Assembly (NCBI GenBank): GCA_034520945.1
Contig: JAXHNB010000006.1
Location: 736,001-800,000 of the forward strand
DNA: 64,000 nt
Origin: Trueperaceae bacterium
GTDB lineage: Bacteria; Deinococcota; Deinococci; Deinococcales; Trueperaceae
Direction: 5' to 3'
Part shown: piece by piece, positions 5,386 to 64,000 of the stretch
Layout: each line of letters starts with the position of its first letter
Position numbering within the stretch: the stretch's first letter is position 1
Program-made: the position numbers and the translations under genes
Notes under the pieces: model-generated
Database searches by the model: none
Seen by the model: the letters and a program-made list of their open reading frames with translations, nothing else
Told to the model about the DNA's origin: nothing

Positions 5386-6813
5386 GTGAGTTCGCCTGCG
5401 CACGCCGTGCGTCCCGTCTACCGCGAGGTGCTGGCCGACCTCGAGACGCCGCTGACCGCCTTCCTCAAGCTGGCGGGTCGGCCTGCCTTCCTGCTCGAGT
5501 CCGCCGAGCAGGGCGAGCGGATCGCGCGCTACTCCTTCATCGGGGTGGGCGAGCGGAGCCGGTTGGAGGCCCGCGGTGCCGACGTGACGCTCACCACGCC
5601 GCAGGGCGTGACGCGCCACCAGAGCGAAGACCCGCTGCGCGACCTGTGGGACCACGTGGTGCGCCCCTCCAGCCATCCGGAGGAGTTGCCCCCCTTCTGG
5701 GCGGGGGCCGTCGGGTACGCGTCGTACGATCTGGTCCGGCGCTACGAGCGGCTCCCCGACGACAACCCGGACGAGCTGAAGCTGCCGGACCTGCTGTTCG
5801 TGGTGCCCGAGGTGCTGGTGGTGTTCGACCACCTGCGCCGCCGCCTGTTCCTGATCGCCCCCGCTCGCGAGGGCGACGCCGACGACGAGCGACGCGCCCA
5901 GCGGTTGGTGGACGAGGCGCACGCCCGCCTGCGCGCGCCGCTGCCGGGGGTGCCCGGCGATCGCGCCGGCCGCCAGGTGTCGTTCCAGGCGAACATGACC
6001 GCCGAGCAATACCGCGAGGCCGTGGATAAGGCCACCGCCTACATCCGGGCGGGCGACATCTACCAGGTGGTGCCCAGCCAGCGCATGTCGGCCGAACTGG
6101 GGGTGCACCCGTTCGCGGTCTACCGTGCCCTGCGGACGATCAACCCCAGTCCCTACCTGGGCTACCTGGACCTGGGCCCCGTCACGCTGGTGGCGTCCAG
6201 CCCCGAGAGCCTGGTGCGGAGCGACGGGTTCGAGGTCGAGACCCTGCCCATCGCCGGAACCCGCAAGCGCGGCGCGAGCCCCGCGGAGGACGCGGCCTTG
6301 GCGGAGGAGCTCCGCGGCGACGCCAAGGAACGCGCCGAGCACGTGATGCTGGTCGACCTGGGTCGCAACGACCTGGGTCGCGTCTGCCGGTACGGCACGG
6401 TGCAGGTACGCGACCTGATGCGGGTCGAGCGCTACAGTCACGTCATGCACCTGGTGTCGACGGTGGTGGGGCAGCTGGCGGAGGGGCGGACCACCCTCGA
6501 CGCCCTGGCGGCCACCCTGCCGATGGGCACCGCCAGCGGCGCCCCCAAGATCCGCGCCATGGAGATCATCGACGAGCTCGAACCGACGCGGCGCGGCCCC
6601 TACGCCGGCGCGTTCGGCTACCTGGCCGTCAGCGGGGCGATGGACATGGCGCTCACGCTCCGCACCATGGTCGTCACCGACGGCCGCGTCCACCTTCAGG
6701 CCGGTGGGGGCGTGGTGGCCGACAGCGACCCGGAGGCGGAGTACCAGGAGAGCCTCAACAAGCTCGCCGCCCTCCGGCGCGCGGTCGAGATGGCCACGAG
6801 GGGCCTGGGATGA
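5386..6813 (+). CDS. trpE: Anthranilate synthase component I
   Basis: LLESAE, GDIYQVVPSQR, NPSPY, PIAGTRKRG, EHVMLVDLGRND, SGAPKIRAM motifs. Confidence 0.95.
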   Translation: MSSPAHAVRPVYREVLADLETPLTAFLKLAGRPAFLLESAEQGERIARYSFIGVGERSRLEARGADVTLTTPQGVTRHQSEDPLRDLWDHVVRPSSHPEELPPFWAGAVGYASYDLVRRYERLPDDNPDELKLPDLLFVVPEVLVVFDHLRRRLFLIAPAREGDADDERRAQRLVDEAHARLRAPLPGVPGDRAGRQVSFQANMTAEQYREAVDKATAYIRAGDIYQVVPSQRMSAELGVHPFAVYRALRTINPSPYLGYLDLGPVTLVASSPESLVRSDGFEVETLPIAGTRKRGASPAEDAALAEELRGDAKERAEHVMLVDLGRNDLGRVCRYGTVQVRDLMRVERYSHVMHLVSTVVGQLAEGRTTLDALAATLPMGTASGAPKIRAMEIIDELEPTRRGPYAGAFGYLAVSGAMDMALTLRTMVVTDGRVHLQAGGGVVADSDPEAEYQESLNKLAALRRAVEMATRGLG

Positions 6814-7397
6814 GCGTCCGCATCCTGATCATCGACAACTACGACTCGTTCACATACAACCTGGTGCAAATGCTGGGCGCGCAAGGCGTCGATCCCGTGG
6901 TGTGGCGCAACGACGCGTTCGACGTCGCGGACGTATCCGGTGTGGCGCCCGATGGCATCGTGATCTCTCCCGGGCCGTGCACGCCCGCCGAGGCCGGCCA
7001 TTCGGTCGAGGTGGTCCGCCGCTACGGCCCGCACCTGCCGATCCTCGGGGTGTGCCTGGGGCACCAGGCGGTCGGCGCGGCCTACGGCGCGCGCGTCGAG
7101 CGGGCGGGCACGCTCATGCACGGCAAGACGAGCGTCGTGCGGCACGACGGCAGCACCGTCTTCCGCGGACTGCCCGAGGAGGTCACCGTCACGCGCTACC
7201 ACTCGCTGGTGGTGCGCGATCCCCCGTCCGAGCTGATCGTCAACGCCTGGAGCGAGGACGCGGGCGAACGGGTGATCATGGGCGTGCGCCACCAAGAGCA
7301 CCCCGTGTGGGGCGTGCAGTTCCACCCCGAGAGCATCCTGACGGTGGACGGCGCCGCGATGCTGGCGACGTTCATCGCGGAGTTGGAGGCTCGGTGA
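6810..7397 (+). CDS. trpG: Anthranilate synthase component II (glutamine amidotransferase)
   Basis: IDNYDSFTYNL, SPGPC, GVCLGHQ, QFHPES; ATGA overlap with trpE. Confidence 0.93.
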   Translation: MSVRILIIDNYDSFTYNLVQMLGAQGVDPVVWRNDAFDVADVSGVAPDGIVISPGPCTPAEAGHSVEVVRRYGPHLPILGVCLGHQAVGAAYGARVERAGTLMHGKTSVVRHDGSTVFRGLPEEVTVTRYHSLVVRDPPSELIVNAWSEDAGERVIMGVRHQEHPVWGVQFHPESILTVDGAAMLATFIAELEAR

Positions 7398-8233
7398 CGC
7401 CTGACGGTCTCACCGTCGTCACGGCCACGCGGGGCCGGCCGGAGGTCCTGCTGGACAAGGCCCACGCGCTGGCGGCGCAGACGCTGCCGCGCGACCGGTT
7501 CGAGTGGATCGTCGCCTTCGACGGGCCCGCCCCGGCGCTCGAGGAACGCCTCACGCGCGAGGTGGGCGACGCTGTGCGGCTCAGGACCGTCGTCACGCCC
7601 GGCGTGGGGCCCGGCCCGGCCCGCGACGCCGCCGCCGGGGAGGCGCGGTACGAGGTGCTGTACCTGTCGGATGACGACTGCCTTCCCGACCCGCGCACGC
7701 TGGCGCGGCACCTCGACGCGCAGGCGCGTCCCGGCCTGTACCTCGGCGCCGTGATTTTCGAAGAGGAGGACGGCCGTCAGCGGCGCTGGGCGCCTCGCCG
7801 GCCCGGATGGTGGAACGTCGGCGGCGCCAACGCGTCGCTGCCCCGTGCCGCGTTCGAAGCGGTCGGCGGCTTCGGGCGCGAGCTGCGCGGCTACGGCGGC
7901 GAAGACCTGTGGCTGGGGTGGCGGTTGGCGCGCCACGGCGTGCCGATCCGGGCCCTGCCGCACGCCGCCGTGCTGCATCGCGGCCCGGATCCCGAACGTG
8001 CCGCCTCGCCGGAACGGGCCCAGCAGGCCGGCGCGAACGCCGTACGGATCGCCCGGATGGAGCCGCGTCTGGCGTGGCGGTTGGGCGTGCACCCCTCGAT
8101 GGTGCGCACCAAGATGGCGCTGCTTCCGCCTCTGGCGGCCATGGGGGAATCCCGCTGGATCGGACGCGAGTTGGCGTACGCCCGCGGCGCGCAGCAGGCC
8201 TGGCGGGCCGAGGCCGAGGAAGCGGCCCCGTGA
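7394..8233 (+). CDS. Glycosyltransferase family 2
   Basis: GTG 7394 overlaps the trpG stop. LTVVTATRGR, VAFDG, LSDDDC (DxD) and GYGGEDLWLGWRL GT-A motifs. Confidence 0.85.
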   Translation: MTPDGLTVVTATRGRPEVLLDKAHALAAQTLPRDRFEWIVAFDGPAPALEERLTREVGDAVRLRTVVTPGVGPGPARDAAAGEARYEVLYLSDDDCLPDPRTLARHLDAQARPGLYLGAVIFEEEDGRQRRWAPRRPGWWNVGGANASLPRAAFEAVGGFGRELRGYGGEDLWLGWRLARHGVPIRALPHAAVLHRGPDPERAASPERAQQAGANAVRIARMEPRLAWRLGVHPSMVRTKMALLPPLAAMGESRWIGRELAYARGAQQAWRAEAEEAAP

Positions 8234-8267
8234 GCAGGATGCGCTTCGACATGGAACAGGAGGCACG

Positions 8268-9311
8268 ATGAGCGACTCCGAAGGCGCGAACTTCGACGCG
8301 TCCCGCGTCCTCGCCACCATCTTCGACGGTCACACCCTGTCGCGGGCCGAGGCTCGCGAGGTGATGGGGCGCTTGATGGACGGCGAGCTCTCGCAGATGC
8401 AGGCGGCGGCGCTGCTTGCGGCGCTCCGCACCCGCGGCGAGACCGTCGACGAGATCACCGGCTTCGCCGAGGCGATGCGGGCCCGCTCGATCCACGTGCC
8501 GGTCGAGGACGACGGTCCGTTGTTGGACATCTGCGGGACCGGCGGGACGGGCGTGAGCACCATCAACGTCAGCACCACCGCCTCGTTCGTCGCCACCGCC
8601 GGGGGCGCGCGCGTCGCGAAGCACGGCAACCGCGGCGTGACCAAGCGCAGCGGCTCGGCCGACCTGCTGGAGGCGCTCGACGTGCGGCTCGACGTGCCGC
8701 CGGAGCGGCTGGCGCAGGCGCTCCGCGAGATCGGGCTGGCGTTCCTGTTCGCGCGGCAGCACCATCCGGCGATGCGCTTGGTGGCGCCGATCCGTGCCGA
8801 CCTCAAGGCGCGCACCATCTTCAACAACCTTGGGCCCCTCACCAACCCGGCCGGGGCGTCGCGCCAACTGATGGGCGTGTACAGCCCCGCCCTGACCCGC
8901 ACGCTGGCCGAGGTGCTGCGCGGGCTCGGCCTGGAGCGAGCGCTGGTGGTGCACGGCGACGGGCTCGACGACTTCACGATCAGCGGCGAGTCGTACGTCT
9001 CCGAGCTCCGGCCCGACGGCGAGATCGTGGAGCACGTCCTGACGCCCGAGGACGTCGGGCTGGACCGCGCCCCCCGCAGCGCGCTGCTGGGCGGCGACGC
9101 CGCCGCCAACGCCGATGCGACGCGCGCCATTCTGGCCGGCTCCACGCGCGGCCCCCAGCGCGACGTGGTGCAGTTCAACGCCGGCGCGGCGCTGTACCTG
9201 GCCGACGTCGCCCCCAGCGTGGCCGAGGGCGTGGCCCTGGCCGGCGAGGTGTTGGACGCCGGCGCCGGACTGGACGTCCTGGAACGCTACCGGGCGTTCA
9301 GCAAGCGCTGA
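8268..9311 (+). CDS. trpD: Anthranilate phosphoribosyltransferase
   Basis: [44 protein letters not shown] before ATG 8268. Confidence 0.95.
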
Positions 9312-53551: not shown

Positions 53552-55819
<2,268 letters not shown>

Positions 55820-56162
55820 GAAACGGGGTTCCTCCTAGCGTGGGATGCTTGCGCAAGTGTCCATTAAAGCATACCCGCACCCCTTCCCGCAACTTGGCGG
55901 TGGGGGGCGGAGCCCGTCATGGCACGATCGTGCCTGCCACCAAAGCCTGTCGCACGCGGGTAAACTTCCTCCACCCCGCGCGCCCGAACGACCCGCTCAC
56001 CGCACCCATTCCAAGGGCCCGGGCTGCCGGGCTGCTGGAACACGGCGCCCCCTCGACCTGCGCCCTCGTGCTGCGCCGCGCCGCCACCTCGCAGCTGCCC
56101 GAGCCGCCTTGGCCGTCTCGTAGAACGCGGCCCTCGACCCTGCGCGCGCCTCAAGAAAAGGT

Positions 56163-56193
56163 TCGAGCCCCGCGTGGGAGGCGCGGGACTCGA
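56163..56193 (-). terminator. Hairpin downstream of the TPR gene (probable terminator on the minus strand)
   Basis: TCGAG-C-CCCGCG...CGCGGG-A-CTCGA stem; followed on the minus strand by ACCTTTTCTT. Confidence 0.5.
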
Positions 56194-56320
56194 CATTCGG
56201 AAGAGAATGGGAGCGAGGCGATTTACAAGGGGAGGTTCACCTCGAATCCACGACTCTAGTTTAGGGGGGCGTTCTTACACAATTCTTACAGGGGGCTGCA
56301 GGTCTCTCGGCATCAAAGAA

Positions 56321-57532
56321 CTATTGAAGGAAGTCCGCTGGTATTGCGTCCGCGACGTTCATTTCCTTGTCGAGGAATCGAGCGTTCTGCAGAGTCTTGG
56401 CAAGTGCGCGGAGCGTGTCCATGTCAGCTTCGTACGAAGGGTCTTCTAACTGCTTCTTTAGGTCACATACATGCAAGAGGACTTGACCGTATTCTTGCAG
56501 GAGCCCCATATCGCTGAATGCCGTGGCCGTTTGCTCCAGCTCCCGAATTGCATGCACATTCGTGTACAGCCCGCGTTTACGGAACACGAGGATCTCCCTA
56601 AAGCGATAGGCAAGGCGATCCGACATATCACCAATTAAAGACTGCCCTCGGTTTAGGCAGTGCAATGCTTCGTCGTTGTCAGAAGTCGAAAGTAGGGTCG
56701 CTAGCGCAAGCTGCGACAAGAACTCTTCGTAGACGACTTGTGTCTTTTGCGCCATATCGATGGCCAAGCGGTAGTGACGGACCGCACGTTGGCTGTGCCC
56801 TTGAATCCATGCGATTTCTCCCTGTAGCCACTTACCTTCGACGCGCATCGCTTGAGGGACAGAATCCGAATCAAGCTCGGTCAGCGCCTCCGAGGCTTCT
56901 CGGAGCCGCCCTTGTGCGACAAGTACGGTCGCCCAACGCATACGAGACTTAAGGTGTTGGAGCCCGGTTGTCAATTGCATCCCTCGTTCGAGGAACCAGA
57001 GTGCCCGCTGGGTACGGCCGACCCGACCGTGAAGAATCCCCAACTGCGCCAAGATGGAGGGGGCCAGAAGTTCGAACTCCGGTAGGCCTTGCAGGCGTCG
57101 CCACGCTTCTTCCGCGAACCGCAATGCCTCACGAATGTCTCCATTAGTCTCTTCGTGGATACTCTTAACCCGCATGAAAAATACCTGGTCGTAGCTCGTT
57201 AGACGAGCGAAGTCAACCTGCTGCAGTTCGTCTGAAGCACGTTCCGCATTGTTCGTCATACGAAGTAGGTGAGCCAGATTGACGCGTGCAGCTTGTTGCC
57301 CCTTCGCAATGGCTCGCTCAAAGGCCTCCTGCGCCTCATCATCTTGAACGAGCTGGAAGTGGCACACCCCTAACCATCGATCGTCGTCGGCCGTGGGGTT
57401 GGAGATGTCATGGTAGGCGTTGATCCCTTTGGTGAAATCCTCTAAATAGACCCAGGCTTGCACAACGCTCTCCAAGGACGCTTCGGGAAAGCTCAAAGCA
57501 ACTTGATCAAGGGCATCCTTAAGGTCTGTCAC
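56321..57532 (-). CDS. Stand-alone TPR-like helical repeat protein (403 aa)
   Basis: Long ORF in AT-richer DNA with TPR-like patterns (WLGVCHFQL..EAQEAFERAI; LAQLGILHGRVGRTQRALWFLERG; LQGEIAWIQGHSQRAVRHYRLA). Confidence 0.8.
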   Translation of the reverse strand: MTDLKDALDQVALSFPEASLESVVQAWVYLEDFTKGINAYHDISNPTADDDRWLGVCHFQLVQDDEAQEAFERAIAKGQQAARVNLAHLLRMTNNAERASDELQQVDFARLTSYDQVFFMRVKSIHEETNGDIREALRFAEEAWRRLQGLPEFELLAPSILAQLGILHGRVGRTQRALWFLERGMQLTTGLQHLKSRMRWATVLVAQGRLREASEALTELDSDSVPQAMRVEGKWLQGEIAWIQGHSQRAVRHYRLAIDMAQKTQVVYEEFLSQLALATLLSTSDNDEALHCLNRGQSLIGDMSDRLAYRFREILVFRKRGLYTNVHAIRELEQTATAFSDMGLLQEYGQVLLHVCDLKKQLEDPSYEADMDTLRALAKTLQNARFLDKEMNVADAIPADFLQ

Positions 57533-57672
57533 CGGTGCATACCCTACTGCACAATGGACGCCTACCCCTGCTTTGAGTCTCGTTTAGACCGTGAAGCAGA
57601 TCTTCGGCTCGGAACTCGGCGACTGTGTTTTGTGCGCACTCCTTGCTTGCAACAGGTCGTGAAAAACCCCGC

Positions 57673-57701
57673 TTGACCCCTTGCACGCCGCATGCTAACT
57701 T
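57673..57701 (+). promoter_or_regulatory. Sigma70-type promoter with extended -10
   Basis: TTGACC (57673-78), 17-nt spacer, TAACTT (57696-57701) preceded by TGC. Confidence 0.65.
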
Positions 57702-57707
57702 GTATCC

Positions 57708-57926
57708 AATCGCTGGTGGCTGGTTGGGAGGCCAGGCTAGCGAGGGTTTTCCCGGCAGCTTGTTGTTGTCGGCGTTCGGAAGAGATCGGGAGCTTGGAGG
57801 AGGCTTGAACCACACCCCAAGCAAGGCCTGATCAGAGTGAGTGCGTTTGCGCTCGAGTAGTTGGAGCTGGGAGGCTCCAACAGCGCTGTCCAATTGAGGT
57901 TGGGAGGCCTCGGATAGCGTGTTTTT
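57708..57926 (+). ncRNA. Candidate structured non-coding RNA or leader with three U-GGGA-G loops
   Basis: Six consecutive hairpins found by eye, several with G-U pairs that favour the + strand; the last is followed by GTTTTT; starts right after the promoter. Confidence 0.55.
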
Positions 57927-57960
57927 GGCACCCAGTTGGGTGCGGGAAGAGGATGGGAAA

Positions 57961-58062
57961 ATGAAGAACACTGGAAAGCGGATTTTCACCGTCGCGGCTC
58001 TGTTTGCACTCGTCAACCTTCCGTTGTTGGTGCTCGCAGGGGTGCACGTCTCGCAACGCTAA
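57961..58062 (+). CDS. 33-aa small peptide MKNTGKRIFTVAALFALVNLPLLVLAGVHVSQR (signal-peptide-like precursor)
   Basis: GAGGA RBS 7 nt upstream; basic n-region, hydrophobic h-region, V-L-A possible cleavage site; own terminator. Below the ORF-track length cutoff. Confidence 0.7.
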   Translation: MKNTGKRIFTVAALFALVNLPLLVLAGVHVSQR

Positions 58063-58081
58063 GCCATACACTTCTGTGTCT

Positions 58082-58119
58082 GCCCGCGGTCAGCGCATGC
58101 TTGACCGCGGGCGTTTTTT
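58082..58119 (+). terminator. Rho-independent terminator after the small peptide ORF
   Basis: GCCCGCGGTCA...TGACCGCGGGC 11-bp stem followed by GTTTTTT. Confidence 0.85.
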
Positions 58120-58334
58120 GGTAATGACGCCAAGAGTTGCGTCAGGGCTCACAGTTGCAGCGTAGTATGGACGTGCTATACACTCTCTGGCTGCACTCGG
58201 ACGGTTCCATGTAGGTAGGGCCAAGAAATCGAGGAAGCGATGTTCCGGGGAAGCAACTTGCGCCACAGGTTTTACTGCAAGTCAACTATAGCGATCTGGG
58301 AGTGAACTGTGCGAGGTATTGAGGTCCCAGAGAA

Positions 58335-60848
58335 ATGAAGGCGGAAGGTGCGTTCGGGTCCTCGTGGTTTGCACGACAGATGACGCAGCTTCGCGTTGGG
58401 GTGAGCCCATATTTAGTTCAGAGCCGGCCAAGATTCGGTACCAACTACCTGTTCCATGCCATGGCCTTGTCGCCAGGCGTCCTGTGGATTGAGCTTGAGG
58501 CTAACGACGGTCCAATTGCCATTGGAAATCGACTCAGCTATGCAATGCAGCGTTCTACAGGCACGAATCTATTTGGACTTGGGATGCCGTATCATTATGC
58601 CCTCGGTTACCTGGTTGGCCTACAGGATGAATTTGGACCTATTACACTTGTGGTTAGTAACGCACAGGGCCACGCCTGGTTCATTGAGCACGTTATTCGA
58701 CTCGCACGAATGTCCGATGGCGCTTTGATGATCATTGCGAACGGGCACGAGGATGAAGGCCCCTGGTCGCAGTTGCTTCAGTCGGACGATGTCCGTGTCC
58801 TTTATGAGTCCGATCTTGCTGTGCGGCCAGATGAGGTACCTAGTCTGTTGCACGGTGTAGATGTGCCAGAGCACATTGCACGCGAATTGTCGATGAAGGG
58901 CACCGAGGAAGGGCTTGCGTATGAAGAGGTGCTTGCGACGATCAACCTTGCTACGGGGCATCGTCCGCCGCCGCGACCTTCACCACATGGTGTCGTGTCA
59001 AGTCAGCGGTCGCCCTTAACGAAGAATCAGCAGTTGGAAGTTCTTATTCAGGAAGAACGTTGGATTGATGCGTTTGAACTTGCGACGGTCCGCGATGACA
59101 AGACTGCACTGCACATCCTCACAGAGTCGGCTGATGCGTACTTTGCGAGAGGCGAACCAGGGCGCCTATTACCCCATGTGCGAAAACTCGTAAGTCAGAA
59201 CCCTGAACACGCGAACGCCATGTATTGGCTATTTCAAGCGTATGTGGCACTGGGTCGCCTGAACGAAGTAGAGCGGCGTGTTGAGAGATTCCTAAAGCGC
59301 CACCAGGCACCCACGTTGGCGGCGTCATATGCGTCAGTGGCGCGCCCTCCGAACGCTGTGACCATGGCTGTCCAGGCAGTGGACCGGCTAAGAGTACCCG
59401 AAACGCTGGCGTCGTTGGGCTTCTTGTGGGCGCACAACGGAGAGGCTGCCCGTGGCATAAGTCTCCTTAGGGAAGCTTTCGAGGGCTACCGTCAATCCCA
59501 TCGGTACCACAGGGCCATACAGTTAGCCAATAGCATCGGGTCGTGCTACGTGAGTCTCGGTGACCATCGGCGAGCACTGTATTGGGGAAGATGGGGGATG
59601 GCGGAACTCTACCGTCGAGGAATACGCGAGGAATTGCTGAGGCTATCGTGTACAAATCTTGTTGCTTACGCATCTCTTTTGGTAGGCGAGCTTCAAGAAG
59701 GTCAAGAACTCTTGCGCTGGGTCAAGATCACGCCGAGTGACGATTCGCTTCCACCAACGTTGGAAGGCTTAGTTACGACAATTGGTGACTACAATGTCGT
59801 AGAAGGCAACGCAGAAACGGCACTATTCTGGTATCGCCGGATTTATGCACAGTATTTTGACCGATTACCAGGATATGCGACTCAGTTGGCGGTACGTGGT
59901 CTTTTGCATGCAGGCAGGCTTGACGAAGCTAAGGTTTGCCTGAATGTAGCGTTGGAGGCGGTCGCGCCTCCTGATTCCACGCAACAGGCCAGGCTAAACG
60001 TAGTCCGAACGGTCATCGAAGCATCGTACCCAGAGGGTGCGTTTCCGGAAGAGCGCGCACTTCTGGAACATGAAAGTGTTCAAGAGGACGCTGTCCTCAG
60101 GGCTGAGTATCTAATTGCACGATCGTCGATTCAATATCGGTCCGGTAATCTGGCCGGTGCCGAAGCAACGCTTAGCGCCCACAGAGACGTATTTGGTAGC
60201 TTAGGGCGTTCAGGTTGGGTGCTTTTGGGACCGCCTGGTGCGCCTATTGACACGCTACGCTCGCTAATCGGTATTGCGCGACCAGCTGAAAGGCACCTAC
60301 TCGTACTCAATGACAGAAGCCTCCTGAAGGAGGGTCATCCCGAGCGTCTGTCGAGGCGTTATGCCGAGCTCTTGACCCTACTTTTGCTGAATCCGGAAGG
60401 GCTTACCGGAGAGGCTTTATTGCTCGAATTGTACGGTGATGCGGGAAGCCTAAGCTCTTTGAAGGCCATAGTCTCGCGTTGCCGAAAGGTCGTTGGAATT
60501 GACTCGGCACCGTACCGTCTAGCTGAGCAACTCACTTCCGACCTAACCGACATCGAGGCGCACCTCCGCGCGGGGCGATTGCGTGAAGCGCTCGAGTTGT
60601 ACAAGGGGCCCTTGCTGCCGGAATCCGAGGCGCCGGGCATTCAGCGGGCGCGGGAGCGGATCGACGAGGCATTGCGGCAGGCCGCTCTGCACGCCAACGA
60701 GGGCGAACTCGTATTGCGTCTCGCGCGGAAGTGGCCGGACGACCTGGAACTGTGGGAGCGTGCGGCGGAGCTGTTCCCCAAGAGCGATCCGACGTACCCG
60801 TTGGTGCGTGCACGGGTACGCCGGATTCGTGGGGAGTGGGGGTTGTAG
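58335..60848 (+). CDS. Large regulator: divergent MalT-like N-region, TPR-like middle, C-terminal winged HTH + BTAD-like domain
   Basis: TPR-like helices (LASLGFLWAHNGEAARGISLLREA; ANSIGSCYVSLGDHRRALYWG); C-terminal LSRRYAELLTLLLLNPEGLTGEALLLELYG...LKAIVSRCRK and ALELYKGPLLPESEAPG. No intact Walker A seen. Confidence 0.75.
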   Translation: MKAEGAFGSSWFARQMTQLRVGVSPYLVQSRPRFGTNYLFHAMALSPGVLWIELEANDGPIAIGNRLSYAMQRSTGTNLFGLGMPYHYALGYLVGLQDEFGPITLVVSNAQGHAWFIEHVIRLARMSDGALMIIANGHEDEGPWSQLLQSDDVRVLYESDLAVRPDEVPSLLHGVDVPEHIARELSMKGTEEGLAYEEVLATINLATGHRPPPRPSPHGVVSSQRSPLTKNQQLEVLIQEERWIDAFELATVRDDKTALHILTESADAYFARGEPGRLLPHVRKLVSQNPEHANAMYWLFQAYVALGRLNEVERRVERFLKRHQAPTLAASYASVARPPNAVTMAVQAVDRLRVPETLASLGFLWAHNGEAARGISLLREAFEGYRQSHRYHRAIQLANSIGSCYVSLGDHRRALYWGRWGMAELYRRGIREELLRLSCTNLVAYASLLVGELQEGQELLRWVKITPSDDSLPPTLEGLVTTIGDYNVVEGNAETALFWYRRIYAQYFDRLPGYATQLAVRGLLHAGRLDEAKVCLNVALEAVAPPDSTQQARLNVVRTVIEASYPEGAFPEERALLEHESVQEDAVLRAEYLIARSSIQYRSGNLAGAEATLSAHRDVFGSLGRSGWVLLGPPGAPIDTLRSLIGIARPAERHLLVLNDRSLLKEGHPERLSRRYAELLTLLLLNPEGLTGEALLLELYGDAGSLSSLKAIVSRCRKVVGIDSAPYRLAEQLTSDLTDIEAHLRAGRLREALELYKGPLLPESEAPGIQRARERIDEALRQAALHANEGELVLRLARKWPDDLELWERAAELFPKSDPTYPLVRARVRRIRGEWGL

Positions 60849-60892
60849 CGAGCGAAGCGTCGGGGGGGGCGTAGGTGACCGCGGTGCGAGCG

Positions 60893-61447
60893 TCAGGCCG
60901 CTTCGGACGGGAACGGCTCGGCGCCCATCATGTGGACGACCAGTTGGGCGCGATTGTCGTGCCCGAGTTTGCACAGCGCATTCGAGACGTGGGCGTTGAC
61001 GGTCTTGAACGAGACGCCGAGGTCGCGTGCGGCGCGCTTGGTGTCGAAGCCCATCAGGAGCAGGCGGACGACGCGGAGTTCCATGAAGGTCAGGGGAGAC
61101 TTGTAGTGGTAGCTGCGTTGCGCGGCCGCGGCGGCGTAGAGGGCGGCGACGAGGCCGCGCCCATCGGTGGACGTCACCACGCCGCTCACGTGATAGCTCG
61201 CGAGGCAGTCGAGGTACGCGGGGTGGATGGCCTGAGTGACGATGAGGGTGCGGGCGCGATCGATGCTGTCGAGACGTTCGAGCTGGTACATGGACCACGT
61301 GAGAGGGAAGTCCAGCAACACGTGTGCGACGTTGGGGTCGCTCGCCATGGAGGGCTCCACGTCGGGGCGGTCCATCACCTCCTGGATCAGGCTGATGAAC
61401 GTGGGGTGGGACGAGTGGACGTGAACCGGGAGGGACTGTTCCGACAT
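60893..61447 (-). CDS. LuxR-family HTH regulator with degenerate receiver-like N-domain
   Basis: LTFMELRVVRLLLMGFDTKRAARDLGVSFKTVNAHVSNALCKLG; GGAG RBS. Confidence 0.85.
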   Translation of the reverse strand: MSEQSLPVHVHSSHPTFISLIQEVMDRPDVEPSMASDPNVAHVLLDFPLTWSMYQLERLDSIDRARTLIVTQAIHPAYLDCLASYHVSGVVTSTDGRGLVAALYAAAAAQRSYHYKSPLTFMELRVVRLLLMGFDTKRAARDLGVSFKTVNAHVSNALCKLGHDNRAQLVVHMMGAEPFPSEAA

Positions 61448-61568
61448 GGCCGATTTCCTCCATACATTGGATTTCCCCGCATGTCGCGAGTGTGAGCCAG
61501 CGACGGTTGCATGGAGGTTGCGGCGGGTCGGGGTCGATGCGATCGGTGAGCGGCTCGCGCCGAGGATC

Positions 61569-62408
61569 TCAGCGTATCCGTGGGTCCAGAAGGTCACGCA
61601 GGCCGTCGCCCAGAAGGCTCCACCCCAGCACTGTGAATACGATCGCCAAGCCTGGGACGAGCGCGGGGTACGGGTTGAGCGACATGAAGCTCTGCGCTTC
61701 GCGCAGCATGTTGCCCCAGCTCGGGACGTCGGGCGGCGTGCCGAGCCCGAGGAAACTGAGCGCCGCTTCGGCCAGCACGGCGACGGCCAGGCTGAGGCTG
61801 GCCTGGACCACGAGCGGGGATAGCGCCCCCGGGACCACGTGACGAAGCAGCAGGCGGCGGTTGCCGGCGCCGAGCGCCCGGCCTGCCTCGACGAAGTCGG
61901 CGTGCTTGAGGGTCAGGACCGAGGCGCGCGCGATCCGAGCGAAGATCGGCACGGTCGCCAATCCGATGGCGGTCATGGCGGTGAGCGTGCCGGGTTCGTA
62001 CACGGCGGCGAGAAGCAACGCCATGAGGATGGCTGGGAACGCGTACAGAACGTCGACGAGGCGCATCGTGACTTCGTCGATCCACCCGCCCAACCACCCG
62101 GCCAGCGTGCCGGCCAGTCCCCCGAGGGCCAGTCCGATGCCGACGGCAAGGAATCCGACGTACAGCGTCCCTCGCGCACCGACGAGGACGCGACTCAACA
62201 GGTCGCGGCCGAACTCGTCCGTGCCGAGGGGATGCGCCAGAGAGGGCCCCTCGAGTTGGGCCGCGAAGTCCAGTGCGTTCGGCGGGTAGGGGGTCCACAC
62301 GAAGCTCAGAAGTGCGCCAGCCACGACGGTTCCGATCAGAAGCACGCCGAGCTTCAAGCTGGTGCCGCCCGGGAGGGCGCGCCCTCGGGTGGGGGCCGCG
62401 GACATCAT
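61569..62408 (-). CDS. Peptide/nickel ABC transporter permease (DppC/OppC)
   Basis: HPLGTDEFGRDLLSR, FVEAGRALGA, EAALSFLGLG, PSWG. Confidence 0.93.
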   Translation of the reverse strand: MMSAAPTRGRALPGGTSLKLGVLLIGTVVAGALLSFVWTPYPPNALDFAAQLEGPSLAHPLGTDEFGRDLLSRVLVGARGTLYVGFLAVGIGLALGGLAGTLAGWLGGWIDEVTMRLVDVLYAFPAILMALLLAAVYEPGTLTAMTAIGLATVPIFARIARASVLTLKHADFVEAGRALGAGNRRLLLRHVVPGALSPLVVQASLSLAVAVLAEAALSFLGLGTPPDVPSWGNMLREAQSFMSLNPYPALVPGLAIVFTVLGWSLLGDGLRDLLDPRIR

Positions 62409-63352
62409 CAGTCGTACCGGATCCGTGGGTCGAGGAAGCCGTAAGACACGTCGACGAGAAACCCGAGCATCACGATCGTCGTGGCGTACACCAGGATCTC
62501 GCCTTGCAGCAAGGGGAAGTCGCGGGTGCCGATCGCCGTGAGGGCCAGACGGCCCAGGCCGGGCAGGGCGAACACCTGTTCGATGATGATGGAGCCGATG
62601 AAGACGTTGGTGAGGCTCAGGCCCAGGATCGTCACCAGCGTCACGAGGGCATTGCGTAGCGCGTGCCCGCCGATCACACGGCGGGGCCGGAGGCCCTTGG
62701 CGCGGGCGGTACGGACGTAGTCTTGGCCCAACGCTTCGAGCATGGCGGCGCGCGTCATGCGGGTCATCACCGCCGCCTGTCCCAGGCCGAGGGCGAAGAT
62801 CGGGAGGAGCAGGCTACGGATGCTGGCCAGGGGGTCGTCCGACCAGGGCGTGAAGCCCCCGGCTGGCACCCAACCCCATTGCACCGCGAACAACAGGATG
62901 AACATCAGGCCGAGCCAGAACGACGGCACAGCGGCCCCCACCTGGGCCAACGAGACGACCAGCGGGTCCAGCCACGTGCCGCGACGCAGGGCCGCCAGGA
63001 TGCCGAGGGGCAGCGAGATCGCGCAGGCGACGAACGCAGCACCCAGCGCCAGCGGGACGGACACGCCCAATCGGTCGGCGATCAAGGTGGAGACCGGACG
63101 ATCGAAGTTGATCGACCGTCCGAAGTCGCCCTGCAGGATGCCGCCGAGCCACGAGAGGTAGCGCTGCGGGGCGGGCACGTCCAGGCCCAGCTGTGAGCGA
63201 AGCGCAGCCAGCGCTTCGGGACTGGTGTTGATGCCGAGAATGATTTCGGCAGGGTCGCCGGGCACGGCCAACAGGGCCGAGAACACCAACAGCGACGCCA
63301 GCAGAATGGTGACGAGGGCTGTCGCGAAGCGGCGCAGGACGTACGGTCCCAT
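62408..63352 (-). CDS. Peptide/nickel ABC transporter permease (DppB/OppB)
   Basis: PGDPA, GDFGRS, PSFWLG, DYVRTARAKGL, HALRNA. Confidence 0.93.
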   Translation of the reverse strand: MGPYVLRRFATALVTILLASLLVFSALLAVPGDPAEIILGINTSPEALAALRSQLGLDVPAPQRYLSWLGGILQGDFGRSINFDRPVSTLIADRLGVSVPLALGAAFVACAISLPLGILAALRRGTWLDPLVVSLAQVGAAVPSFWLGLMFILLFAVQWGWVPAGGFTPWSDDPLASIRSLLLPIFALGLGQAAVMTRMTRAAMLEALGQDYVRTARAKGLRPRRVIGGHALRNALVTLVTILGLSLTNVFIGSIIIEQVFALPGLGRLALTAIGTRDFPLLQGEILVYATTIVMLGFLVDVSYGFLDPRIRYD

Positions 63353-63406
63353 ACATGCAGCGGGGACGGCACCGGGTGCGATGCCGTCCCCGTACCGGTG
63401 TCCGCC

Positions 63407-64000
63407 TCAGCGGGCCCGGTAGACCTCCGTCATGTCGACGGCGGGCGTGGGTTGGTCGGTCCAGAATCCGTACACGTCTTCCTGGGCCGCGACGAGGTAG
63501 GGCGGGCTGAAGATCCACACGTTCACGGCGTCCTCCGCGATGATGCGGGCGATCTCCTGGTAGGCGGCGATCTCGTCCTCCTGCGTGGGGGTTGTCTCGG
63601 CGCGCTCAAGGAGCTCCCCGACTTCGGGATTGTCGTACTGGTAGTAGTAGTCGGGGTCGGCGTACACATTGATGTCACGGGGTTCCGAGTGCCCGATGAT
63701 CGTCATGTCGTAGTCGGCACCGAGGAAGATGCGCTGGATCCACGTTCCCCACTCGACGACACTGAGGTCCACGTCGATGCCGACCTCCGCCAGCTGCTGC
63801 GCGATCACCTGACCGCTGCGACGCTCGATGTTGTACGGCTCGGGAAGCTCGAACGACACGGTGAAGCCGTCGGGGTATCCGGCTTCGGCCAGCAGTTCGC
63901 GGGCCCGTTCGGGGTCGTAGGGGTAGGTGTCGCTCAGGTCGATGTAGTACGGCTCGGCGGGGCTCATGTGCGTGCCGATGACCGTGCCGAGGCCGAACAT
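63407..64000 (-). CDS. ABC transporter family-5 substrate-binding protein, 3' part (continues off the right edge)
   Basis: YPYDPERARELLAEAGYPDGF, IAQQLAEVGIDV. Confidence 0.9.
   Translation of the reverse strand: MFGLGTVIGTHMSPAEPYYIDLSDTYPYDPERARELLAEAGYPDGFTVSFELPEPYNIERRSGQVIAQQLAEVGIDVDLSVVEWGTWIQRIFLGADYDMTIIGHSEPRDINVYADPDYYYQYDNPEVGELLERAETTPTQEDEIAAYQEIARIIAEDAVNVWIFSPPYLVAAQEDVYGFWTDQPTPAVDMTEVYRAR

Follow-up and report, generated by a model that had tools for sequence, protein, structure and literature searches.

Between a gene for a tetratricopeptide repeat (TPR) protein and a gene for a large putative regulator, a stretch of 64,000 nucleotides from a Trueperaceae bacterium (G000:C6:736001-800000, hereafter the window) holds an open reading frame (ORF) of just 33 codons. 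Is so short a frame a gene at all and, if it is, could its product be exported, trimmed and then sensed by the neighbouring TPR protein, as happens in the RRNPP systems and in phage arbitrium? An initial annotation, made from the nucleotide letters alone, had proposed a TPR receptor and exported pre-peptide of this kind in a probable member of the Deinococcota, and the window does belong to a Trueperaceae metagenome-assembled genome (MAG) of 3.47 Mb in 10 contigs that is 97% complete. We consider it more likely than not that the locus encodes an RRNPP-like peptide quorum-sensing system outside Bacillota. Selection on the small gene, its linkage to the TPR gene, a Rap/NprR-like predicted fold, co-folding and co-variation all speak in silico for the proposal. 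The genomes compared below are mostly MAGs and, owing to kinship, related genomes are not independent observations.

The 33-codon gene and its link to a TPR protein

Three features of the window are needed to follow the argument:

57961..58062, plus strand: 33-residue pre-peptide gene; codons 1-26 (57961-58038) form the putative signal peptide, codons 27-33 (58039-58059) encode GVHVSQR, and a stop codon follows
57945..57959, plus strand: conserved Shine-Dalgarno region (GGAAGAGGATGGGAA), from the alignment
56321..57532, minus strand: 403-residue cytoplasmic TPR protein, the proposed peptide receptor in a form without a DNA-binding domain, from the ORF, Pfam matches and an AlphaFold2 (AF2) model

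The small ORF is listed as 47 residues from a GTG at 57919, and the ATG at 57961 gives the 33-residue product MKNTGKRIFTVAALFALVNLPLLVLAGVHVSQR. It is separated from the 403-residue gene by 428 nt. A BLAST search of 41 related genomes with the whole intergenic region as query finds a single conserved piece, 57946-58062 (query positions 414-530), comprising the small ORF and its ribosome-binding site. The Shine-Dalgarno core 'GGA(A/G)GGATGGGA' is kept just 5' of the ATG in nearly all aligned loci.

A peptide profile built from ten orthologous peptides was used in a six-frame search of 364 genomes of the phylum. It matched 50 of them at E <= 0.01, all in one family (49 of 127 genomes besides the window genome), and none of the 236 genomes in five other families of the phylum. 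Three of these matches (E 2.6e-4 to 7.5e-3) were set aside as partial matches within long frames, and the 47 strong ones (E <= 4.4e-11) correspond to 47 of 128 Trueperaceae-family genomes including that of the window; all 47 loci were examined. The gene is 33 codons long in 45 of the 47 (32 and 35 codons in the other two), and all 45 differ in DNA. Eight residues are nevertheless invariant among these 45 genes (M1, K2, N3, G5, I8, F9, A26 and R33), and those at positions 2-33 are written with two to five synonymous codons, which places the constraint on the protein rather than on DNA or RNA. Judged by this pattern of conservation, the 33-residue ORF is a real gene under protein-level selection.

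The encoded product is laid out as a signal peptide would be. Its n-region (residues 1-7) has a charge of +3; the core (8-18) varies in sequence and keeps its hydrophobicity; and the c-region has N or S at position 19, P21 in 36 of 45 genes, only V, A or G at position 24 and the invariant A26. Signal peptidase I follows a -3/-1 rule, and under this rule the layout fits cleavage after A26, which would free GVHVSQR, the heptapeptide that the initial annotation had named.

The tail that would be released behaves differently from the rest. Positions 28-30 hold 8-10 different residues each, S31, Q32 and R33 are mostly kept, and relatives carry variants such as GVHLSQR, GLDVTRR, GMTYSQR, GQWWSQR, GVSMIKR and VAPASTR. 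The aligned tails are hypervariable, in the way of a pheromone.

What ties this gene to the TPR protein is position. With the 47 loci oriented so that the peptide gene is on the plus strand, 44 of the 46 assessable loci have an orthologue of the proposed receptor 297-517 nt upstream, on the minus strand (L094, which has no upstream flank, is left out of the count). Seen from the receptor side, a small signal-peptide ORF sits beside the strong receptor orthologue (E <= 5e-71) in 10 of 10 such genomes among the 41 relatives. The initial annotation had suggested scanning homologues for adjacent short signal-peptide ORFs, and the linkage is what that scan yields. Around two distant receptor homologues (L024 and L025), a crude filter for small signal-peptide-like ORFs found nothing convincing.

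Several side observations concern the spread of the gene. In genome G013, a diverged pre-peptide (L042 4848-5030, minus strand) has another signal-peptide-like start and carries the motif AGLEHR twice in its tail; it adjoins a receptor orthologue (5510-7216, plus strand), after which a membrane HD-GYP gene follows. The peptide profile misses this pre-peptide, so the system extends beyond the 47 profile matches. Its double tail recalls the tandemly duplicated pheromone propeptides described for Bacillota (PMC11343458). Contigs from four DNA sequencing runs of three studies match 57897-57987, that is the ribosome-binding site and the first nine codons, and then diverge, which is consistent with relatives carrying other peptide variants in like samples. 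In one run, X3, a near-identical contig differs at 11 positions in 873 nt, and its peptide ORF is changed only at the third position of codon 26.

Predicted fold of the TPR protein and placement of the peptide tail

Pfam recognizes the 403-residue protein by generic repeats (TPR_2, 36.2 bits against a cut-off of 27; TPR_19, 31.9 bits against 25), in keeping with the TPR-like gene divergent from a promoter that had been read from the sequence (see below for the conserved element at 57673-57701). The AF2 model, made with 37 orthologues, is an all-helical solenoid with a predicted local distance difference test (pLDDT) value of 94.9 and a predicted template-modelling score (pTM) of 0.89. When this model is compared with the PDB by Foldseek, the first match is RapJ-PhrC (4gyo; E 2.4e-7, template-modelling score (TM) 0.66/0.73, root-mean-square deviation (rmsd) 4.7, 377 columns). 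Rap of phage phi3T with its pheromone reaches TM 0.61-0.72, and the TPR domains of APC, LGN and OGT stay at or below about 0.5. In VIA-align, the first 8 entries are all Rap or NprR (Z 26.5-28.4, rmsd 3.6-4.2, 321-332 residues). Among them, 8rsu, 4i9c and 4gyo score Z 27.7-28.4 with rmsd 3.7-4.0 over about 330 residues, and NprR scores Z 28.1 in the apo form (5dbk) and 26.5 with NprX (4gpk); AimR lies at Z 20-22.4. The modelled protein thus looks like Rap and NprR in its global fold. In the structural alignments, identity to RRNPP structures is 9-13%.

The short form is particular to the window's genus. The four receptors seen in that genus have 403-429 residues, and the orthologues outside it have 563-607. 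The additional C-terminal segment of about 160 residues matches Pfam NNH6 in 23 of 24 members (best E 6e-7) and aligns with the winged helix-turn-helix (wHTH) region of the 837-residue regulator encoded 3' of the peptide gene (hhalign probability 57%, E 1e-4, 131 columns). BLASTP of the two C-termini is not significant (E 0.30), and a PDB search with a profile of the long-receptor C-terminal domain returned generic or chance matches only. The receptor in its usual form probably joins TPRs to an OmpR/SARP-like winged helix at the C-terminus; this domain would be ancestral, and the window's genus has lost it. Pfam and NCBIfam scans find no helix-turn-helix (HTH) model at the N-terminus and so no counterpart of the XRE-type module that NprR, PlcR, Rgg, PrgX and AimR have there; residues 1-43 or 44-110 may correspond to the three-helix bundle at the N-terminus of Rap. 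As the receptor has no signal sequence and its long form bears a wHTH, it would be cytoplasmic. The non-RRNPP layout with a C-terminal DNA-binding domain that had been proposed for the locus therefore holds for the receptors of other genera (563-607 residues) and for the 837-residue protein, and not for the window's own 403-residue receptor.

Searches for more distant relatives of the receptor were less specific. A PDB sequence search with a long orthologue (L035) gave MamA only, at E 0.35. In the ESM Atlas, the nearest cluster to the 403-residue protein is one of 564-residue Deinococcota proteins (TM 0.95), followed by a 637-residue cluster named 'BTAD domain-containing putative transcriptional regulator' (TM 0.84); the ESM Atlas feature search gave generic TPR clusters only. 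Receptor homologues number at least 194, and the close ones with a source name are nearly all proteins of Trueperaceae bacterium MAGs, annotated as hypothetical or TPR repeat.

The peptide and the receptor were then modelled together from a receptor alignment and an alignment of the whole 33-residue pre-peptide, in three runs with three controls. The co-fold score is 0.63 (runs 0.63, 0.66 and 0.59), against 0.02 for the best control, and the runs share at least 55% of their contacts. Of 157 solved complexes, 116 attain the pass mark, compared with 2 of 215 mismatched pairs, a calibration that is rough for this case since custom alignments were used. On the peptide, the confident interface comprises residues 26-33 only, that is the proposed mature peptide plus A26, with none in residues 1-25. 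On the receptor, it recurs periodically along the concave face (59-62, 88-94, 125-129, 162-163, 194-202, 228-232, 266-269 and 302-305). The co-fold with the 403-residue protein, which the initial annotation had recommended, thus places the GVHVSQR tail in the TPR groove and supports binding without showing it.

Co-variation of peptide and receptor, likewise suggested at the outset, points the same way. In 35 of the 37 pairs (the other two have tails of different length and were left out), distances between tails follow those over the 26 interface columns at r = 0.707, and those over the remaining columns at r = 0.574. When 26 columns are drawn at random with matched entropy, 0 of 2000 sets attain 0.707 (mean 0.484, sd 0.073), and a partial Mantel test gives r = 0.505 (p ~2e-4). 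Receptor residue 199, an arginine in the window and predicted to contact S31 and Q32, is Arg wherever the tail ends in SQR (24 of 24 pairs) and otherwise in 5 of 13 pairs, the rest having T, K, H, V or G. The predicted contact residues hence appear to co-vary with the peptide tail, and of the two receptors that the initial annotation thought possible, the 403-residue protein is the better supported.

Promoter, structured leader and neighbouring genes

The peptide gene is preceded by a promoter-like element and a long leader, and terminators lie 3' of it and of the TPR gene:

57673..57701, plus strand: promoter-like element of the peptide gene; -35 TTGACC at 57673-57678, a 17-nt spacer, and -10 TAACTT at 57696-57701 after TGC
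57707..57960, plus strand: putative structured 5' leader of the peptide mRNA, ~250 nt, from the folding z-score, with an inferred transcription start
57720..57735, plus strand: leader hairpin 1, a GGGA tetraloop closed by U.G (UGGGAG), from an alignment of 29 loci
57860..57881, plus strand: leader hairpin 2, UGGGAG motif on a 9-bp stem, from an alignment of 33 loci
57894..57913, plus strand: leader hairpin 3, UGGGAG motif, from a motif scan
58081..58119, plus strand: intrinsic terminator of the peptide gene; stem at 58081-58113 with 13 pairs (9 G-C), then TTTTTT
56163..56193, minus strand: terminator-like hairpin 3' of the TPR gene; 12 pairs, 9 of them G-C, with a T-rich tail

A scan for consensus sigma-70 promoters gave 0 sites; its rule was too strict for the conserved TTGAC-N17-TAnnnT element. 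Of 44 loci, 34 carry the element in its relaxed form (TTGAC-N17-19-TAnnnT), whereas 100 shuffles yield 2.1 such loci on average and never more than 6; across loci the element keeps a fixed distance 5' of the first leader hairpin. Its position at 57673-57701 sets the leader at ~250 nt. As a side observation, a permissive regular expression places an ATATACG-like motif ~40 nt 5' of the -35 in 24 of the 34 element-bearing loci (L078, L080, L083, L084, L086 and L095 are examples); the window and L032, both with receptors that have no wHTH, gave no match.

The leader folds strongly. The segment 57690-57960 (271 nt) reaches -123.5 kcal/mol with z = -4.65, and 0 of 200 shuffles are as stable; the stretch past the terminator (58063-58334) is unremarkable (z = -0.68). 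For 20 of the 44 loci, and with a shuffle that preserves dinucleotides only approximately, the 250 nt 5' of the ATG give z < -2 in 15 of 20, with a median of -3.78. The initial annotation had described a structured RNA of ~220 nt at this place; the structure stands, and the RNA is better taken as the 5' leader of the mRNA than as a separate gene.

Within the leaders, one small hairpin recurs. UGGGAG hairpins with a stem of at least 5 bp number 92 in 43 of 44 leaders (1-4 each), all on the peptide strand and none on the opposite one, against a mean of 1.8 and a maximum of 8 in shuffles. Their stems differ between genomes, and the loop is always GGGA closed by U.G. Since an obligatory U.G pair works on one strand only, the structure is one of RNA. 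In hairpin 2 (near -100; 33 loci), 7 of 8 pairs show compensatory changes and every locus keeps the U.G closing pair (33 of 33); its covariation score of 0.666 compares with 0.254 for shuffled alignments (0 of 500 reach it) and at most 0.225 for slid controls. In hairpin 1 (near -235; 29 loci), 5 of 8 pairs are changed on both sides, with a covariation of 0.410 against 0.214 shuffled (0 of 500 reach it). Because only hairpins with 5 or more pairs were taken, the fraction of paired positions is biased, unlike the compensatory changes.

Rfam cmscan of 55500-61000 at E <= 1 gave no match in 57700-57960 and two sub-threshold, chance-level hits elsewhere (27.5 bits with a gathering threshold of 70.4, and 20.2 with 40). 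The UGGGAG hairpin is a conserved RNA motif that is new and apparently undescribed. Its GGGA loop fits the GNRA class of tetraloops. The whole genome (3.47 Mb) contains 9 such hairpins, 3 in this leader and 6 elsewhere; three of the latter were inspected and fall in high-GC DNA that seems to be coding, which gives no sign of a regulon. Control by CsrA, suggested by the GGA loops and the AGGAUGG Shine-Dalgarno sequence, was considered and dropped: its family, PF02599, is absent from the 97%-complete genome, and the control search matches E. coli, B. subtilis and T. maritima. Our best guess is that the hairpins are a site for an RNA-binding protein, or an element controlling stability or translation of the peptide mRNA.

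The terminator noted at the outset as the small ORF's own is a 13-pair stem in the window. A crude scan finds a hairpin and T-run within 100 nt of the peptide gene in 14 of 45 loci, so a terminator is not universal. The hairpin at 56163..56193 sits between the stop codon of the TPR gene and a gene at 53552-55819 (minus strand) for an S1 (rpsA-like) protein of 755 residues, whose five S1 domains are flanked on either side by long extensions rich in Ala, Glu, Asp and Pro.

The remaining genes of the neighbourhood lie 3' of the peptide gene:

58335..60848, plus strand: 837-residue regulator with TPR, wHTH and BTAD regions, from Pfam and an AF2 model
60893..61450, minus strand: GerE/LuxR-type HTH regulator, 185 residues from a Met at 61450, from Pfam; the ORF could reach 61597
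61569..64000, minus strand: Opp/Dpp-type ABC importer; permeases at 61569-62408 and 62408-63352, and a binding protein that starts at 63407 and leaves the window

The cassette as a whole (~56200 to 60600) has a GC content of 0.51-0.59, compared with 0.60-0.755 in its flanks, as had been noticed before. In loci that span 9 kb or more and include a receptor gene, that gene is lower in GC than the rest of the locus in 35 of 35 (median difference 0.106), and the 837-residue gene is likewise lower in 25 of 25. A deficit present in every locus examined is a standing property of the cassette across the family rather than the mark of a recent arrival in the window genome. All the cassette elements named in the initial annotation were found at or near the places it gave, and their joint recurrence in dozens of genomes puts them far beyond chance.

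For the 837-residue protein, Pfam gives TPR_19 (29.1 bits), BTAD PF03704 (25.7 bits against a cut-off of 22.1, residues 738-785) and TPR_14 (25.5 bits). Its AF2 model (pLDDT 88.1) divides into an alpha/beta domain (~1-210), TPRs (~230-645), a wHTH (~653-730) and a helical BTAD (~736-835). Among PDB entries, DNA-binding domains of the OmpR/PhoB type match a profile of the wHTH region (E 5e-4), and the TPR-wHTH-BTAD-like character first assigned to the protein is borne out. By hhalign, the family and the long receptor share homology across 384 columns (probability 95.7%, E 9e-9). In the N-terminal segment, a Walker A GK[ST] motif occurs in 0 of 23 aligned sequences, Pfam finds nothing in residues 1-232, and any P-loop of the alpha/beta domain would be a degenerate one. 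The best Foldseek match, the STAND-TPR protein 6mfv, has an E of 4.3e-6 and a TM of just 0.23/0.29; a PDB sequence search with the 837-residue protein gave generic or chance matches only.

An orthologue of this regulator lies 3' of the peptide gene on the same strand in 28 of 47 loci, and the family is broader than the peptide system, being present in 30 of the 41 relatives. A second paralogue, 30% identical, is encoded in the same genome (G000:C2:270403-272823; L013/L044), and no copy of the 33-residue peptide gene was found near it. Elsewhere, signal-peptide-like ORFs (~43-54 residues from an internal Met) adjoin 837-residue paralogues at L010 (G021; ~1282, plus strand) and L038 (G013; ~3546, minus strand), two loci that have no 33-residue peptide gene. 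These small ORFs, picked by a crude filter, may be further peptide-regulator pairs or chance.

The LuxR-type gene and the Dpp/Opp-type transporter that had been read beyond the regulator are likewise recognized by Pfam. A GerE HTH scores 43.4 bits in the ORF at 60893-61597 (minus strand), LuxR orthologues align from about residue 47-50 of the long ORF, and Pfam finds no autoinducer-binding domain, indeed nothing, in the N-terminal 118 residues. A convergent GerE/LuxR gene is present in 25 of 47 peptide loci. The importer has two BPD_transp_1 permeases, and the orthologue of its binding protein matches SBP_bac_5 (family 5, Opp/Dpp/Nik type) at 303 bits. Importer orthologues with 63-82% identity adjoin the LuxR gene in 13 peptide loci of 4 genera, and a paralogous importer set is found in three more. 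The initial annotation had allowed that the importer's place was coincidental; synteny in 13 loci of 4 genera makes coincidence less likely.

The 837-residue gene, an HD-GYP gene or LuxR may follow the peptide gene, and some loci have none of these. In 14 of 47 loci (for example L035 at 8139-9146 and L036 at 6852-7760, both minus strand, and 12 more), a membrane-anchored HD-GYP protein (PF13487) is encoded 157-686 nt 3' of the peptide gene on the same strand, suggesting a link of the peptide signal to cyclic-di-GMP turnover. In the comparison of the 47 loci, the HD-GYP gene is absent from the cassette in the window and its genus.

Proposed circuit, rival explanations and known systems

In the circuit that we propose, the 33-residue gene would be transcribed from its own conserved promoter with a structured leader of ~250 nt, and Sec would export the pre-peptide, from which signal peptidase I would release GVHVSQR by cutting after Ala26. 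The precursor has no pro-region, so the signal-peptidase cut alone would yield the heptapeptide. This would accumulate outside the cell and then re-enter, most plausibly through the neighbouring Opp/Dpp-type importer, to bind the concave groove of the cytoplasmic 403-residue TPR protein and change its output. In most Trueperaceae, the receptor with its C-terminal wHTH would be a peptide-controlled transcription factor on the divergent promoter region. In the window's genus, a receptor without a DNA-binding domain would have to act via protein-protein contact, Rap-like, through a partner for which the 837-residue paralogue and the GerE/LuxR regulator are candidates. We infer, moreover, that the response depends on cell density, that there are output genes under the receptor's control and that the leader has a regulatory role. 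The fullest version of this account falls somewhat short of an even chance in our judgement. It takes the locus for a family-wide pheromone system native to a diderm lineage outside Bacillota, with a minimal Sec pre-peptide, pherotype-like diversification of tail and groove, a receptor family (Rap-like TPRs plus a C-terminal winged helix) of independent origin or only remote kinship to RRNPP receptors, and the hairpin-bearing leader as a second, undescribed layer of control, the receptor of the window's genus being a Rap-like switch.

Several points weigh against the circuit. As to the receptor, Rap and NprR are closely followed in VIA-align by domain III of MalT (Z 26.4) and by an APC subunit (Z 25.3), so the fold match points to RRNPP receptors without isolating them. 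No RRNPP-family sequence model in Pfam or NCBIfam matches (generic TPR models only, with TPR_MalT below threshold), and the window's form, having no DNA-binding domain, needs a further partner for its output. As to binding, the co-fold leaves the peptide's own conformation uncertain (pLDDT 43-46), and some of its score may come from resemblance to the Rap-Phr and NprR-NprX complexes already solved. The interface was derived from the same paired alignments, so co-fold and co-variation are not independent. Furthermore, the SQR trait changes 4 times on the tree, and a phylogeny-aware sign test on receptor residues 199, 232, 195, 60, 163, 88, 269 and 268 has 2-4 independent pairs, too few for significance, and gives p ~1.

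Linkage and import have their exceptions as well. Genome G273 has a peptide gene and no receptor within ~5 kb, and in G002 the gene order differs, with the LuxR-ABC block upstream and the contig ending 21 nt past the peptide gene. The importer is missing beside LuxR in 6 of 19 assessable loci, its cluster contains no ABC ATPase gene (the next upstream gene in G005 is for a pseudouridine synthase), and at 63-82% identity it may be a highly conserved housekeeping neighbour. Finally, the putative cleavage site is placed after A26 by the -3/-1 rule, and the N-terminus MKNTGKRIF is far more conserved than a Sec n-region requires.

That N-terminus would make sense if the 33-residue product is never cleaved and stays in the membrane as a single-pass protein with its N-terminus inside, modulating for example the HD-GYP phosphodiesterase or tethering the TPR protein. 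MKNTGKRIF could then serve as a cytoplasmic contact motif, the 19 uncharged residues 8-26 are enough to span a membrane, and a membrane HD-GYP gene is near at hand in 14 of 47 loci. This topology would, however, point the tail outwards, away from a cytoplasmic receptor, and the co-fold places its confident contacts in that tail (26-33) and none in residues 1-25. A polar residue 19, P21, a small residue at -3 and the invariant Ala at -1 make a canonical signal-peptide c-region, a hypervariable tail co-varying with the groove is unexpected of a membrane anchor, and throughout the window's genus, the window included, the cassette contains no HD-GYP gene. We regard a membrane protein as unlikely.

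A second possibility grants export and cleavage and lets the peptide act outside, on an HD-GYP sensor or as an antimicrobial or competition factor, with the TPR protein regulating its synthesis. The signal-peptide layout serves this explanation equally, as does the membrane HD-GYP neighbour (14 of 47 loci), and in a diderm host it avoids peptide-signal re-import, for which we found no described precedent in diderms within the literature searched. Against it stand the co-fold and the tail-groove co-variation, which indicate direct binding to a TPR protein that would be cytoplasmic (no signal sequence, and a long form with a wHTH), as well as the syntenic Opp/Dpp-type importer; seven residues would also be short for an antimicrobial peptide. 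An outside-acting peptide is, in our view, quite improbable.

The structure of the leader and, in the window, a strong terminator directly 3' of the ORF and 5' of the 837-residue gene would also suit a cis-acting leader peptide or attenuator governing read-through into that gene or into the HD-GYP gene. We think this very improbable, since a terminator-like element is confined to 14 of 45 loci, different loci have different genes downstream, and purifying selection at both ends with a core kept in hydrophobic character only bespeaks a protein product. Least credible of all is the precursor of a ribosomally synthesized and post-translationally modified peptide with its modifying enzymes encoded elsewhere, for which the conserved N-terminal part (as leader) and hypervariable C-terminal part (as core) would speak, but whose central segment is a typical signal-peptide h-region and which has neither a modifying enzyme nor a dedicated exporter among the neighbours in 47 loci (five queries and Pfam scans, covering part of the flanking ORFs).

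If the peptide is indeed a re-imported signal, Rap-Phr is its closest parallel. RapF, RapJ, Rap-phi3T and Rap-pLS20 are, like the window's receptor, all-helical TPR solenoids of ~400 residues without a DNA-binding domain, and they give the best structural matches. In both cases, a short exported pre-peptide gene adjoins the receptor gene (export being predicted for Trueperaceae), the ligand is hypervariable between lineages, and the C-terminal 5-7 residues are the ligand in the concave groove, again as a prediction for Trueperaceae. Rap proteins work by binding partner regulators, including the GerE-type ComA, and a GerE-type gene is syntenic in the Trueperaceae cassette. The differences are equally plain: there is no sequence homology (11-13% identity in structural alignments) and no family model match, the peptide gene is divergent from the receptor gene where a Phr-type gene lies 3' of it, the pre-peptide is without a pro-region, the host is a diderm of the Deinococcota, and the presumed ancestral receptor has a C-terminal wHTH.

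That ancestral form is nearer to NprR-NprX and PlcR-PapR of the Bacillus cereus group, where a TPR protein is a peptide-controlled transcription factor, as predicted for the 563-607-residue Trueperaceae form, and NprX is likewise a heptapeptide from the C-terminal part of a small exported precursor. The DNA-binding domain of NprR and PlcR is, however, an N-terminal XRE-type HTH, unlike the putative C-terminal OmpR/SARP-like winged helix of the long Trueperaceae receptor, and the window's genus has none. With arbitrium (AimR-AimP-AimX of SPbeta-like phages), the locus shares a TPR receptor, a short, presumably exported peptide, an RNA element and a proposed mature peptide with a conserved C-terminal motif and variable N-terminal positions. 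AimR, though, matches less well than Rap or NprR, no phage context is seen in the window region examined, and the Trueperaceae RNA would be the 5' leader of the peptide mRNA, whereas that of arbitrium is a downstream regulated small RNA.

The 837-residue protein has relatives of another kind. Its BTAD, OmpR-type wHTH and long TPR sensor recall SARP/AfsR regulators and the STAND protein MalT. In the SARP order, the wHTH and BTAD are N-terminal, whereas here they are C-terminal, after the TPRs; and, unlike STAND proteins of the MalT/AfsR kind, the family has no Walker A GK[ST] in 23 sequences, and the window's protein adjoins a peptide gene.

In the literature consulted, RRNPP(A) systems are treated as a trait of Bacillota and mobile elements (PMC10075063, PMC9765709, PMC12700828). 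A literature search, with most subscription journals outside its reach, found no report tying such systems to Deinococcus, Truepera or any non-Firmicute.

If the proposed circuit is correct, it would bring this mode of signalling to a further phylum and to cells that have an outer membrane, and would imply either a deep ancestry or a convergent invention of the Rap/NprR design. It would also add a new regulatory RNA motif, and the Trueperaceae would offer a natural series of ~30 peptide-receptor variants in which the evolution of specificity could be studied.

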